Below, one piece after another: positions 54,678-61,202 of a DNA stretch of 64,000 nt. The notes under the pieces were generated by a model that worked only from the letters and a program-made list of their open reading frames with translations, searched no databases and was not told the DNA's origin. How positions within the stretch are numbered: the stretch's first letter is position 1; each line of letters opens with the position of its first letter. The DNA lies in the sequence record PZ445443.1. The stretch is one strand, 5' to 3'. The position numbers and the translations under genes were made by a program. The DNA comes from a phage.

Positions 54678-54711
54678 AAGGCCATGCAACCGCATGGCCT
54701 TTATTATTTTG
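54678..54711 (+). terminator. rho-independent terminator
   Basis: GGCCATGC-aacc-GCATGGCC followed by TTTATTATTTT; a second hairpin AGGCCC...GGGCCT lies just upstream. Confidence 0.6.
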
Positions 54712-54758
54712 GCGTTACAACGGCATACGGAGCGCTTAAAAATTTTTTAAATAAGTAC

Positions 54759-54787
54759 TTGCATCATGTCCGACAATATGGATAATA
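54759..54787 (+). promoter_or_regulatory. sigma70-like promoter
   Basis: TTGCAT, 17-nt spacer, ATAATA. Confidence 0.4.
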
Positions 54788-55899: not shown

Positions 55900-55927
55900 T
55901 TGACAATAGTTTATTACTTGATAGACT
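55900..55927 (+). promoter_or_regulatory. sigma70-like promoter
   Basis: TTGACA (55900-55905), 16-nt spacer, TAGACT. Confidence 0.5.
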
Positions 55928-56094
55928 GTATTTCGTAGGGCGGGGCAATAAGGCAACGCCCATTAATGATGGTAGAATCATGTTAGATAAAATTTTCACG
56001 GTTGTAGTAGTTGGCCTGGCATTATAGGTTGGAGTGGTTGCAACTATGGCTAACATGATCCTATCTTCCCATGGTATCGGTTAAGGTGAATCAA

Positions 56095-56310
56095 ATGATC
56101 ACGAATAAGACAGGTAAAACGGAATTCTTGCGCGGCTTGCAGATCGGCAAGCCAGAGATCTGGTATTGCACTAAAACACCACGTGACGAAATGAAAGACT
56201 TCACCGCCACGCTGCAACGGGTAAAGATATCCATCACGCAGAAAAAGGCCTTGATAGTGGTGGAAGGTGAGATCCCTCAAACCGTTGTTATAGTTGAGCG
56301 TACAGCATAG
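56095..56310 (+). CDS. early small protein (71 aa)
   Basis: ATG 56095 with AAGGTG upstream (track start 56071 lacks RBS). Confidence 0.45.
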   Translation: MITNKTGKTEFLRGLQIGKPEIWYCTKTPRDEMKDFTATLQRVKISITQKKALIVVEGEIPQTVVIVERTA

Positions 56311-56401
56311 TTTAATTTATAGCGATACCTGAAAATTAACCAATAAATCATAAACAGGCGGTTACCGCCGCCTTAAACGTAGCAGAAAGAGGCTAGACAC
56401 A

Positions 56402-56686
56402 ATGAAAAAGATGATCGCAGTAGTTGCCCTGGTTGTTGGACTTAATGCACCTGTAATGGCTAAAGAGCTGGCAAAAGAGGTTAATCTAACGGATATCCAT
56501 GCCGTCAATCAAATCGGGGTTACTTATCGCTTATGCCTTGCCGCTAAAACTTTTAATGACGGTACAACAGAGTACTACGGATTCGAAGGTATCCGGTGCG
56601 GTGAGCTTGCTCGCGACCTTAAGGAAGATCCAGACCTGGAAGATCTGCCCATCACCGTAAACGGTAAAGCTTACGTAAACCGTTAA
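56402..56686 (+). CDS. early secreted/periplasmic protein (94 aa) with cleavable signal peptide
   Basis: MKKMIAVVALVVGLNAPVMA-KE signal peptide without lipobox Cys; RBS AAGAGG. Confidence 0.6.
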   Translation: MKKMIAVVALVVGLNAPVMAKELAKEVNLTDIHAVNQIGVTYRLCLAAKTFNDGTTEYYGFEGIRCGELARDLKEDPDLEDLPITVNGKAYVNR

Positions 56687-56688
56687 CC

Positions 56689-56823
56689 ATGAGAAAGATA
56701 ATCATCACCTTGGGGATTGTGGCGGGATCGCTGGCGCTCTTTCCCCTTATGGTTAGGTATGTGCTGATCAGTATTGTCCTGGTAGTCAGTGATCTATTGG
56801 AAACGGTTGGCACCTTGTTTTAA
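56689..56823 (+). CDS. small hydrophobic protein (44 aa, below ORF-track cutoff)
   Basis: ATG 56689 2 nt after upstream stop (coupling); MRKIIITLGIVAGSLALFPLMVRYVLISIVLVVSDLLETVGTLF. Confidence 0.35.
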   Translation: MRKIIITLGIVAGSLALFPLMVRYVLISIVLVVSDLLETVGTLF

Positions 56824-56835
56824 AGAGCGGTAAAA

Positions 56836-57027
56836 ATGAATATCGAACAAGTTAGAAAAGTATTAGCGGTACTGCGTTATCATAATCATAGAAAGGTCAT
56901 AGACGATCCTGATTATGTTGATTCAAGCCTGGAAGGGGATACACTACAAGCTATAAGTAACATGCAAGAATTGCTAAAGCGCATGACAGAGAAAAACCGA
57001 CCGGACTACATAGGCGAAAAAATATAA
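56836..57027 (+). CDS. early small protein (63 aa)
   Basis: ORF track. Confidence 0.5.
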   Translation: MNIEQVRKVLAVLRYHNHRKVIDDPDYVDSSLEGDTLQAISNMQELLKRMTEKNRPDYIGEKI

Positions 57028-57043
57028 TATTTATAAACTACAA

Positions 57044-57080
57044 AACAGGGCTTGCAATGGTCCTGTTTTTTGTTATACTT
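57044..57080 (+). terminator. putative terminator
   Basis: ACAGG...CCTGT stem followed by TTTTTTGTT. Confidence 0.45.
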
Positions 57081-57155: not shown

Positions 57156-57184
57156 TTGACATCTGCCATGGGGTGGGGTAACAT
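57156..57184 (+). promoter_or_regulatory. sigma70-like promoter
   Basis: TTGACA (57156-57161), 17-nt spacer, TAACAT. Confidence 0.5.
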
Positions 57185-57981: not shown

Positions 57982-58401
57982 ATGAATATTAAATCTGATA
58001 ATCCGGCATATAGCTTTGATAACGCTTTTTGTCACGGTCCGGCGGCGAAAGGTTTTGAAATTGATGGTAAACTAGTTATTGTCAATGTTGACGGGGAAGA
58101 GGTTGCAGTGTATCCGGTGGCAGACGTTAAAAGCCGTTTACAATGCCGCATCGATGTTACCGCATATCAGCTTGATCCGGTCCGCGTAGTCTCCCTGGTC
58201 CTGGAGGAAGAAATCAAAGCAATGCACCACAGCAATAAGTTTATCGGTGACGCGCAAGATAATATGAAGGTATGCCGCTATAAAGTTAATGAAGTGCTTA
58301 AAGAATATGGATTTAAGGATCTGATGATCAAACGTGATGAAAAATTTCGTTATCGTAACGACCTGGCAAATCGAATCTATGAAATATACGAATCATTATA
58401 A
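57982..58401 (+). CDS. early protein (139 aa)
   Basis: ORF track; RBS AAGAGG. Confidence 0.55.
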   Translation: MNIKSDNPAYSFDNAFCHGPAAKGFEIDGKLVIVNVDGEEVAVYPVADVKSRLQCRIDVTAYQLDPVRVVSLVLEEEIKAMHHSNKFIGDAQDNMKVCRYKVNEVLKEYGFKDLMIKRDEKFRYRNDLANRIYEIYESL

Positions 58402-58420
58402 TTTTTTAACTGAATTATCA

Positions 58421-58445
58421 AGGGGCTTAGGCCCCTTTCTTTTTG
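58421..58445 (+). terminator. rho-independent terminator closing the early cluster
   Basis: AGGGGC-ttag-GCCCCT followed by TTCTTTTT. Confidence 0.65.
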
Positions 58446-59039
58446 TCTGCTCTTCCCCTACCATAAACGGCCATACATGGCAAGTGGAATAATTGACGAG
58501 CCATCAATCCCACACACTGTACAAATATACATGTAAAATAACTATTGCATAACTTTTCATTGTGTGGTAGCAGGGCCATTTTTACACGTTTTTCCTTCCA
58601 AAATTGCACGTAATGCAGCATTTGCACAAAATTTAACCTGATGCATATCTTCAATAGCTTGTCAACAACTAAAAATCTTTATAAGTCATACACTTACATA
58701 ACTACAAAAGCGTTTTCTACGTGAAAAATCGAGTATAACTATAGCCGCCAGACCTCAGAATTTACGTACGCTCGACATTCTATAGCCTGCTAAGCATTTA
58801 TTCCAACCATAGAATAACGGAATAGTCAATACCTGCATAAAATAATTATTCGTGTAAACTGCATAACATAAATCGGCCCAGGTGTCAACATTTTTCGTAA
58901 ACAGTCCGAAATTATCACTATGAGTTATCATAAACAGGGAAATCTTTAGTCGTCTAATGTTTACTGTACATTACTATACTGACTGGAATCATTAGATGAC
59001 TAAGAGAAAGATAAGAAATAATTAACAATACAATTATTT

Positions 59040-59345
59040 TATCTGTAACAATAAGGCAACTATGCAAACGAATGGCATGGCGCGACGGAGTCGCGACATA
59101 ATATAAAAGCAGTAACCATCACCCCCGTGATAGTTTGTCTGCAAACTATTAATCAGATCATAGTTGCCTTGTATTTAGTTAATCATGACATAACAAGCAA
59201 GGCAACTATAGATCTGCTAATAGTTGCCCTGCTTTTATATTATGTCATAGAAACACCCGAAGGGGTGACCAAAGGTCACCTGGCATGGCCAGTGAAAGAT
59301 TATTAACTTGCTAATAGTTATCATGCAAACGAATGGCATGGCTGA
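59040..59345. repeat. palindrome-rich segment bounded by a 20-bp direct repeat
   Basis: ATGCAAACGAATGGCATGGC at 59062-59081 and 59323-59342; palindromes CGCGACggaGTCGCG, GATAGTTTGtctgCAAACTATT, GGCAACTAT...ATAGTTGCC, GGTGACCaaaGGTCACC; long-range inverted repeat GACATAATATAAAAGCAG / CTGCTTTTATATTATGTC. Confidence 0.45.
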
Positions 59346-59350
59346 TTATC

Positions 59351-59490
59351 GGTGTGTAAACAGTCAATCATGTAAATGGTTAGCATGTGAACAATCAGGA
59401 ATGTAAACAATCCAGTGTGTAAACTAATAGGTGTGTAAAAGTGTCATGTTGTGTCAGTTAGGTCACATTATGTCATATTGTGTCAGACAA
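59351..59490. repeat. iteron-like array of TGTAAAC / TGTCA(G/T) short repeats
   Basis: GTGTGTAAACAG, CATGTAAATGG, CATGTGAACAA, AATGTAAACAA, GTGTGTAAACTA, GTGTGTAAAAG at ~16-bp spacing, then TGTCAT/TGTCAG repeats. Confidence 0.45.
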
Positions 59491-60012
59491 GTTTTTCTCC
59501 TCTTTGTCAAGTGCTGCATGAAAAATTTACAATCTGGTATGGTAGCATTTTTGCGGCCCTGTTTACATTCAGGGGTGTATGTATAATCCTTGTTGTGTGG
59601 GCGTTTAGACGTCTGGACGGTCAGAAGTCTGCAGGTTAATATCTAATCTATTGGCTGCTAACTATATCCCACACAAATAGTAAGAAATATGATTGTTATA
59701 TGCGTAAACTGTAACTCATGTTATCAATCCCTGTATGTATCGCCAGTGGTGCGCATAATGGGTATTATGTTAAATTGCCCGTAATGATAAAGGTTCTCAC
59801 AATGATAGGTATTCTCATTCACCCCCACAAAATAGATTGCAAATGTTGTGCCACTGTGTGAACGGCCTAGCCTATTAATTTGCCTCACTGCCTCGATATT
59901 TGAGAATTGTTATAAGAATGAGAAGTATTCCCATTTCGTCCGCCTGGCAGCACTCCTGTAGGTCAGGTCAAAATCGTGGTAGAACTGGACCTGTTCAGAT
60001 ATTTCTGGCTGA

Positions 60013-61202
60013 CTCTTCAGGTCTGTGTGGGAAAAGCCAACCTCTCCGGCGGGGCAGGGGATAGGTCAATTAAAAAATTTACGTGGTGTATGAAGCGCTC
60101 TTCAGGTAAGGCAGGTATTATGGGATGAAACCCTCTTCAGGCAATGATATTTGTGGGTGTGATATTTGCTGGAAAGCCAGATATGACGGGACTCCCGGCG
60201 GGGCAGGGGTGGTACAGACAGGGAAAATATGAAGGATGTGGTTGGGTAGATTGATCAGACAGGTAGAGTATGGAATATGTTACAAGTATGTTAAATATGG
60301 AGGTTGAATATCTGTAGGATTTGTGTGTAAAATCAAAGACTTAAGTGGTGTTGTGGTATTTTCTATAAATAATTCAAGTTTAATAGGTGATATTTGTCTC
60401 TATCCGCTTTGTGTGGTAAACAGATTCAGATGAGATTGGTTTACAAGTGTATACATAATATACAAATTAAAGATACAAGAAACCCCCCTCCCCCTTCGGC
60501 TACCATTCACCTTTTCCTCTGACTGGTACTTAAACACTTATTCAGACTCTTCAGGTTATCACCTATATATCATATGGCAGTGACTGGTGTCCTCCGGCCC
60601 CTCTTTCGTCACCCGTCCGCTTCGCCATGCTAATGCCATAGCCAATGGTTCGGTTGTTCACCCTGTTCACTCAGGTGTATCTCCATACCCCTTCAAACCG
60701 AAGAGAACAGAAAACCCGAATTACTCGGTAAAAGAAAAGAGAAGAACTTAATTTTATCAGGATAGGCAAGAATGTCAAGGCATGACTGCTCACTAAACAA
60801 GCAAACAGTCATGTGTGGGAGGTAAGTGATTGTGGTGGTAGGAAATTTAGTTGAAAGATGTGTTATAGGTGCTTCCAGCACTTTAGCCGGGCAGCTAATT
60901 GTGTGTCAGTCCAGCGGTTCATCCTCTACTTCACTGAAATCAATGTTCATGGTCTCCTCCCAACCATCGATCTCAGCACAAGAGTGGAGTTCTTTAGGGT
61001 TTACTCCCAAAGCCTCAGCAACAGAGTCTATATTTAACACCTCTGGCAGGTATGATTCATCAAATTCAAGGTAAATCAGGCCACGAGTGTTGTCAGCCCC
61101 ACCAAATATTTCTATCTTCATGAAATCTCCTCTGGAAATGAGAGTGTGAACAGGGTTTTATGCGTTCCAATACGCTGGAATTATACACGTTTGCCTCTTC
61201 AG
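60013..61202. repeat. dispersed CTCTTCAGG 9-mers (5 copies) and two copies of CTC(C)CGGCGGGGCAGGGG
   Basis: CTCTTCAGG at 60013, 60098, 60133, 60547, 61194; CCGGCGGGGCAGGGG at 60046-60060 and 60195-60209. Confidence 0.4.
60906..61121 (-). CDS. hypothetical acidic small protein (71 aa)
   Basis: ORF track; ATG 61121 with GAGGAG 6 nt upstream. Confidence 0.5.
   Translation of the reverse strand: MKIEIFGGADNTRGLIYLEFDESYLPEVLNIDSVAEALGVNPKELHSCAEIDGWEETMNIDFSEVEDEPLD

Follow-up and report, generated by a model that had tools for sequence, protein, structure and literature searches.

What would a phage gain by sending a small protein into the periplasm of its host and placing an even smaller peptide in the membrane beside it? 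The question is raised by two adjoining genes (56402-56823, + strand) in the window, the 64,000-nucleotide stretch of phage DNA analysed here (record PZ445443.1), which the initial annotation had read as an early secreted protein with a membrane partner, plausibly a receptor-blocking or envelope-modifying module. The 1.9 kb around the pair is 98% identical to Escherichia phage PMBT16 and matches 240 phage records, nearly all of them rV5-like E. coli myoviruses of the genus Vequintavirus, and the window is an rV5-like Vequintavirus. Few coliphages are isolated more often than phages of this type, which are used in cocktails for therapy and biocontrol; nearly all of their early genes are unannotated. 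Both ORFs of the pair are labelled “hypothetical protein” in the deposited annotations that we inspected, the 44-aa ORF often being left out. By sequence, ORF 56402-56686 and ORF 56689-56823 are direct orthologues of rV5 gp171 and gp170, listed in Table S3 of the rV5 paper as 94 aa without annotation and as 44 aa, “membrane protein, 1 TMD”, in the order gp171, gp170, gp169 (63 aa) (PMC3606486). The predicted export signal of gp171 and the putative coupling of gp170 to it are described nowhere in that paper. A reading of gp171 as a virion protein was rejected, its entry in Table S3 carrying no structural-protein (MS evidence) note.

Comparison among related phages indicates that both ORFs are coding and under purifying selection. 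The 94-aa gene has dN/dS values of 0.09-0.26 (Nei-Gojobori) when the window is compared with five other lineages, namely FV3, EduardKellenberger, two Phapecoctavirus and a divergent 138-kb metagenomic lineage. For the 44-aa ORF the values are 0.2-0.45 between divergent lineages, against approximately 0.5-3.6 in the other two frames of the same DNA, and its length is exactly 44 codons in all 15 carriers among 16 related loci, down to about 50% amino-acid identity; JLBYU08 is the only one of the 16 to have lost it. Since dN/dS is well below 1 only in the coding frame, and since the 44-codon length is invariant, both ORFs can be taken as real genes. Each also matches a PHROG profile over its entire length, the 94-aa ORF phrog_9845 (E 6.9e-62, positions 1-94 of 94) and the 44-aa ORF phrog_16005 (E 6.3e-27, positions 1-44 of 44).

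The coordinates first given for the 94-aa gene (56402-56686, +) were confirmed. It is preceded by a Shine-Dalgarno sequence, AAGAGG (56387-56392, +; also given as AGAGG), with a dG of -5.8, which lies 9 nt upstream of the start and is kept in all lineages. Codons 1-20 (56402-56461, +) encode a signal peptide, MKKMIAVVALVVGLNAPVMA, whose features are kept in 40/40 homologues and which, with the KE that follows it, is parsed as MKK / MIAVVALVVGL / NAPVMA before KE: an n-region of charge +2, a hydrophobic core of 11 residues, the helix breakers N and P, and V at -3 and A at -1. Signal peptidase I is predicted to cut the precursor between A20 and K21, a site of the A-x-A type. The leader has a dGapp of about +2 kcal/mol over 17 residues on the biological hydrophobicity scale (reportedly that of Hessa et al. 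2005), and its hydrophobic core, being too short and too weak for a stable transmembrane helix, fits a cleavable signal. The leader was thus rightly described as a signal-peptidase-I type without a lipobox: it contains no cysteine, and the cleavage motif is found in all 40 full-length cluster representatives, in the forms xAPVMA, APAMA and APVLA, or SMA/A in a divergent lineage. Lipoprotein readings of either product were rejected for want of a lipobox. The claim of export is likewise supported at the level of sequence, the 94-aa protein having the features expected of an exported, non-lipoprotein periplasmic protein.

The mature domain (56462-56683, +) comprises 74 aa with a pI of 4.8, and a β-β-β-α-β topology is predicted for it by AF2. 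Modelled alone, it reached a pLDDT of 90.3 and a pTM of 0.76, the five models spanning 78-90; of the five models made for the whole precursor, a single one was confident, and its core was that of the mature-domain run. Cys45 (56534-56536) and Cys66 (56597-56599), both present in 39/40 homologues, probably form a disulfide. Identity of the mature protein is at least 72% in nearly all family members; the residues that vary cluster at the mature N-terminus (21-28, 33 and 41) and at 80-84, and the C-terminal half of the family is nearly invariant.

The second gene (56689-56823, +) proved to be as the initial annotation had it, a hydrophobic 44-aa ORF beginning 2 nt past the upstream stop (TAAccATG), with a GRAVY of 1.71. 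By sequence, its product looks like a membrane peptide, with one clear transmembrane segment and an amphipathic hydrophobic tail. Residues 4-22 (TM1; 56698-56754, +) have a dGapp of -0.4 to -2.0 (+0.5 in the divergent L012 lineage) and a hydrophobic moment of about 0.05. Residues 24-44 (56758-56820, +), with a dGapp of +4 to +5 and a moment of 0.25-0.39, are hydrophobic and amphipathic and do not span a membrane autonomously. L15, A16, S34-D35-L36 (in this second segment) and F44 are invariant in the peptide, and P19 is nearly so. Two topologies would suit these features: N-in/C-out, the C-terminal helix being interfacial or oligomerising, or a tight helical hairpin.

How the peptide is translated is suggested by the junction between the genes (TAAccATG; 56684-56691, +), where the start of the 44-aa ORF has no Shine-Dalgarno sequence. 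Pairing there has a dG of +0.2, as against -4.6 to -8.3 at the neighbouring genes and a background mean of -2.7, and the ORF lacks a Shine-Dalgarno in six of seven lineages, the seventh having a weak one (dG -3.9). Throughout the lineages examined the junction stays tight: TAAccATG, TAAtcATG, TAGatATG, TAAccGTG (EdH4, which has a GTG start) or, in the 96-aa “...NRQQ” variants, an ATGA overlap. Because the 44-aa start lies always 2 nt past the upstream stop or overlaps it, and because it has no Shine-Dalgarno, the straightforward reading is that the peptide would be translated by termination-reinitiation coupling. No RNA structure spanning the junction was found beyond chance (z 0.25).

The pair lies in a block of small genes, and its operon also takes in a small membrane ORF (cut short in the window), a gene of 71 aa and one of 63 aa. 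The 71-aa gene (56095-56310, +), the homologue of rV5 gp172 (phrog_5988), starts at 56095 behind the Shine-Dalgarno AAGGTG; an alternative start at 56071 was rejected. The nearest upstream promoter, and a candidate for the operon, is a strong sigma-70-like sequence at 55900-55927 (+; TTGACA-16-TAGACT with a TG extension), one of several sites with a perfect TTGACA -35 hexamer (55416, 55683, 55900 and 57156). In rV5, sigma-70 promoters P174 and P168 are predicted to flank these genes, which are placed in a long transcription unit, 10-1-238-164, that includes rIIA (PMC3606486). Since the operon is predicted to be read by the host sigma-70 RNA polymerase, the pair may be presumed early, and early expression, as first proposed, is a reasonable inference from position and promoter consensus. 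A GC-rich hairpin (56356-56373, +; dG -11.6, z -2.6) in the 5' leader precedes the Shine-Dalgarno of the 94-aa gene by about 15 nt. Having no U-tract, it is not a canonical terminator and may serve in RNA processing or stability, or terminate transcription weakly; the stems at this site differ among lineages (GGCGG/CCGCC vs GGGGCG/CGCCCC), with variants in FV3 and the Phapecoctavirus locus L005 and no hairpin in one Phapecoctavirus, L009.

Beyond the pair, the third gene (56836-57027, +), a homologue of rV5 gp169 (phrog_9599), encodes a 63-aa protein of cytoplasmic type and has its own Shine-Dalgarno. It lies outside the two-gene module and is distributed independently, having relatives at the DNA level (68-79% identity) in jumbo phages (SP27, slurp01 and A4), in Av-05 and in a Serratia phage, a much broader range than that of the pair, and being absent from FV3. 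The operon ends at an intrinsic terminator (57042-57075, +; also given as 57042-57069) with an 11-bp stem and a U-tract (dG -14.6, z -3.8), for which EdH4 carries a terminator annotation. This terminator overlaps a promoter-like sequence, TTGCAA-16-TATACT with a TG extension (57042-57079), and a second promoter, TTGACA-17-TAACAT (P168 of rV5), follows at 57156-57184, a compact terminator-promoter arrangement between early operons. At the other end of the operon, the upstream membrane ORF (55980-56027, of the rV5 gp173 type) is cut to 15 codons by a change from TCG to TAG at 56025-56027; ORFs of this type have 34 codons in PMBT16, EdH4 and FV3, and the TAG reflects a genuine amber mutation or else an error in sequencing.

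The distribution of the two genes shows how closely they keep together. Among the 240 records matching the region, 172 encode the 94-aa protein, and in at least 153 of those 172 the 44-aa ORF is detectable; gene order and junction are the same as in the window in 15/16 loci, those with both ORFs. The 94-aa gene is therefore the constant element, the peptide usually accompanies it, and the module as a whole is accessory. Each member can be lost without the other: the Murica clade (12 records) has a clean deletion of the 44-aa ORF beside an intact 96-aa secreted protein, while in the metagenomic contig L016 (ERR3991045_227) the 94-aa gene is missing its leader and N-terminal half and the 44-aa ORF is intact. 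The two genes thus need not act together. Of the “membrane partner” that had been proposed, the coupling of translation appears to hold, while an obligatory partnership does not, given the Murica clade without the peptide and L016 without an intact 94-aa gene. The L016 deletion is about 1.9 kb (an estimate from the gene layout), and about five small genes are missing near it, from which the stretch around the pair would be dispensable. At 2501-2707 of this contig is a 68-aa chimeric ORF in which a short upstream ORF (like that at 54684-54785 of the window) is fused to what is left of the 94-aa gene, its C-terminal half.

Outside this group of phages the two families are not found. The 94-aa family occurs only in Vequintavirus, Phapecoctavirus and one divergent sister lineage (word-indexed and exhaustive HMM searches), and the peptide family has the same range in word-indexed searches; vertical descent alone could account for so narrow a range. 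The word-indexed searches covered 5.8 billion proteins and the exhaustive HMM search, run with the 94-aa family, 1.84 billion representatives, and no relatives beyond the group were recovered; a 1609-aa match at E 5e-4 was taken as spurious. Scans of both proteins against Pfam, NCBIfam, PADLOC and PHROGs returned only PHROGs without a function label. Sub-threshold hits of the peptide to LPAM_1, Mplas_variab_LP, DUF7396 and Tom5 were taken as noise of hydrophobic composition, and a UniRef label of “DUF3096” on one 44-aa variant was not reproduced by a Pfam scan. For the 94-aa protein, sequence-profile matches to evasin and SpoIID in the PDB were rejected (all E >0.1), and the predicted βββαβ fold of its mature domain had no match in the PDB. 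The sole structural match above noise outside the family was BFVD A0A4D6DYR4, a 104-aa protein of Escherichia phage Lidtsur (Foldseek E 2e-3, TM 0.54, 18% identity to the model), and the two could belong to a broader structural grouping among small phage proteins. Full-text literature searches found no functional study of these genes and no transcriptome for the rV5 phage group.

Taken together, the pair is very probably a conserved accessory envelope module of rV5-like phages, made up of an exported protein and a coupled inner-membrane peptide. Sec would export the 94-aa precursor and signal peptidase I would cut it after A20, an event that would release an acidic 74-aa βββαβ protein, probably disulfide-bonded, into the periplasm. 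Ribosomes ending on the 94-aa ORF would reinitiate 2 nt downstream (at the ATGA overlap in other lineages) to make the peptide, which would sit in the inner membrane with its N-terminus in the cytoplasm, followed by TM1 (4-22) and the amphipathic C-terminal segment with its invariant Ser-Asp-Leu. These predicted locations make an envelope-directed role plausible. Homology gives no function, and the reasoning here starts instead from anatomy and biology. Peptidoglycan digestion and DNA transfer by a superinfecting tail tip have to take place in the periplasm and at the outer face of the inner membrane. We propose, tentatively and by analogy with T4 Spackle and Imm, to which the proteins are not homologous, that the module may exclude superinfecting phages of its own tail type after adsorption, at the periplasm or inner membrane. 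The step blocked would be tail-tip penetration, peptidoglycan digestion or DNA transfer, with the secreted protein as the main effector and the peptide as an auxiliary or separately acting component. A site of action after adsorption is favored because the receptors are glycans and because it is the only one that a periplasmic protein reaches directly. Exclusion directed against the phage's own kind also fits the confinement of both families to phages of one tail type and their dispensability, and a patchy, dispensable occurrence is what exclusion genes typically show. Vequintavirus, Phapecoctavirus and the sister lineage have their tail/baseplate architecture and terminal receptor in common (PMC8594841). 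Inhibition of a virion enzyme would require one that is exposed to the periplasm; rV5 encodes gp2 (Hydrolase_2) and gp89 (lysozyme), which may or may not be so placed (PMC3606486).

The likeness to known exclusion proteins is one of anatomy. T4 Spackle (gp61.3), an early periplasmic protein with a 97-aa precursor, a 75-aa mature form and one disulfide, inhibits the tail lysozyme gp5 (PMC7677548). The 94-aa protein would resemble it in its cleavable-type Sec signal, in the size of its precursor (94 vs 97 aa) and mature form (74 vs 75 aa), in its two cysteines (the disulfide being demonstrated in Spackle and inferred here), in its dispensability, in its predicted periplasmic location and in its early-type region. 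However, Spackle is an α-helical bundle and the 94-aa protein is predicted to be β-rich (βββαβ), and the likeness would thus be convergent; the two have no sequence or structural similarity in Pfam, PHROG-function, NCBIfam or PDB-sequence searches, and gp5 has no identified counterpart in rV5-like phages. T4 Imm has 83 aa and two transmembrane segments, and its gene is not known to be adjacent or coupled to sp. The 44-aa peptide is comparable in being, by prediction, a small inner-membrane protein of a lytic myovirus that would act beside a periplasmic protein, but of its two segments one is clearly transmembrane and the other amphipathic, and it has no Pfam match to the Imm families. More broadly, family, sequence and structure searches gave no match to Spackle, Imm, Sim, exclusion proteins or lysozyme inhibitors. 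[quoted passage not shown]

Receptor blocking, in the sense of Llp of T5 and Cor of T1 and phi80, fared less well. Those exported phage proteins also guard the infected cell against reinfection, and the likeness is one of export; they are lipoproteins that bind the protein receptor FhuA, whereas the site here is VMA/K without a lipobox and the 44-aa peptide has no cysteine. Furthermore, by published genetics, Vequintavirinae require ECA and LPS core glucose and no protein receptor, which leaves no outer-membrane protein receptor to mask (PMC8594841). With glycan receptors and no lipoprotein, masking of the Llp/Cor type is unlikely, as a soluble periplasmic protein cannot cover surface glycans. 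A two-component spanin (Rz/Rz1) was also considered and rejected, there being no lipobox, no long periplasmic domain in the 44-aa component, and a globular β-rich soluble component.

Other explanations place the pair in the same compartments and differ in its target, or deny that it acts as a pair at all. Assembly of the receptor glycans takes place on the periplasmic side of the inner membrane. Acting alone or with the peptide, the exported protein could bind a host protein there or in the periplasm, for example one involved in ECA or LPS assembly, Tol-Pal, a peptidoglycan enzyme or a protease, and so take over the envelope and possibly reduce the display of the ECA/LPS-core receptors. We regard this as doubtful. 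It draws on the same localisation evidence as the exclusion proposal, the phage group's receptors are indeed ECA/LPS-core glycans (PMC8594841), and the invariant S-D-L inside the peptide's hydrophobic helix suggests a specific intramembrane contact; however, neither product resembles a known inhibitor or enzyme, and a general host-directed effector would be expected in other coliphage groups, whereas the exhaustive search found the family in this one only. The narrower version, that the exported protein, alone or with the peptide, acts from the periplasm on ECA/LPS-core glycan assembly or export so that infected cells stop displaying the receptor, seems quite unlikely. It is likewise doubtful that the two are functionally independent accessory genes whose products do not cooperate, the 44-aa ORF simply borrowing the ribosomes of its neighbour. 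Independence would explain the separate losses in the 12 Murica records and in L016, and it agrees with the roughly threefold faster evolution of the peptide (dN 0.29 vs 0.10, window vs L009) and with C-terminal tail variants of the peptide that appear to switch with the downstream gene variant (L011 and L012). It accords less well with the retention of both genes in at least 153 of 172 records, with the equally narrow range of the families, and with a junction kept in three sequence forms across lineages whose synonymous divergence is saturated.

A role in lysis timing, the secreted protein being a periplasmic sensor or antiholin-like regulator by the logic of T4 RI and the peptide a holin-modulating component, is unlikely. 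The lysis genes of rV5 are scattered (lysin gp89, putative holin gp129), rIIA is in the same long transcription unit, and small products of predicted periplasmic and membrane location would suit such a role; against this, the leader looks cleavable and not SAR-like, no PDB structure matched (RI's included, if present), no lysis genes are nearby, and the module is dispensable and missing from many relatives. It is similarly improbable that the pair counters an envelope-located host or prophage defence, for instance an exclusion protein of a prophage or an abortive-infection effector in the membrane. Such a function might lead one to expect accessory, patchy and relatively fast-evolving genes in a variable early region, as these are, but PADLOC and other libraries gave no match, no partner system was identified, and a mature protein that keeps at least 72% identity in nearly all members would be atypical of an arms-race inhibitor. 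Finally, the absence of the 44-aa ORF from the annotation of many GenBank records might suggest an artefact, with ORFs that are not expressed or a protein that is not exported; the in-frame dN/dS well below 1, the invariant 44-codon length, the conserved signal peptide and cysteine pair and the confident fold prediction make this extremely improbable.

As it stands, the pair is an ordinary uncharacterised, lineage-restricted accessory gene pair of a familiar kind, small phage-encoded envelope proteins, and it offers a compact and easily assayed candidate for how rV5-like phages alter the envelope of the infected cell. If exclusion is its function, the finding would matter for the design of cocktails, in which co-applied relatives would interfere with each other, and would provide a second example beside Spackle and Imm of T4, structurally unrelated to them. 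If instead glycan display is affected, it would represent an inside-out, receptor-level exclusion of glycan-binding phages by a fold unseen in the PDB. Were the function a different one, the protein would still be an orphan periplasmic fold.

Two further observations concern the records and the region around the pair. Approximately 15-20 GenBank records in the series MG0656xx, deposited as “Campylobacter phage” (e.g. H14, H36 and H131), are 94-100% identical here to E. coli Vequintavirus and are probably mislabelled or contaminant assemblies. Downstream of the operon, the coding strand switches in a stretch (about 58400-61000) with almost no credible ORFs, in which we found no tRNA and no Rfam family at the gathering threshold, and where the GC skew is irregular; this stretch appears to match the 2.6-kb “non-coding” block of rV5 (104013-106618).
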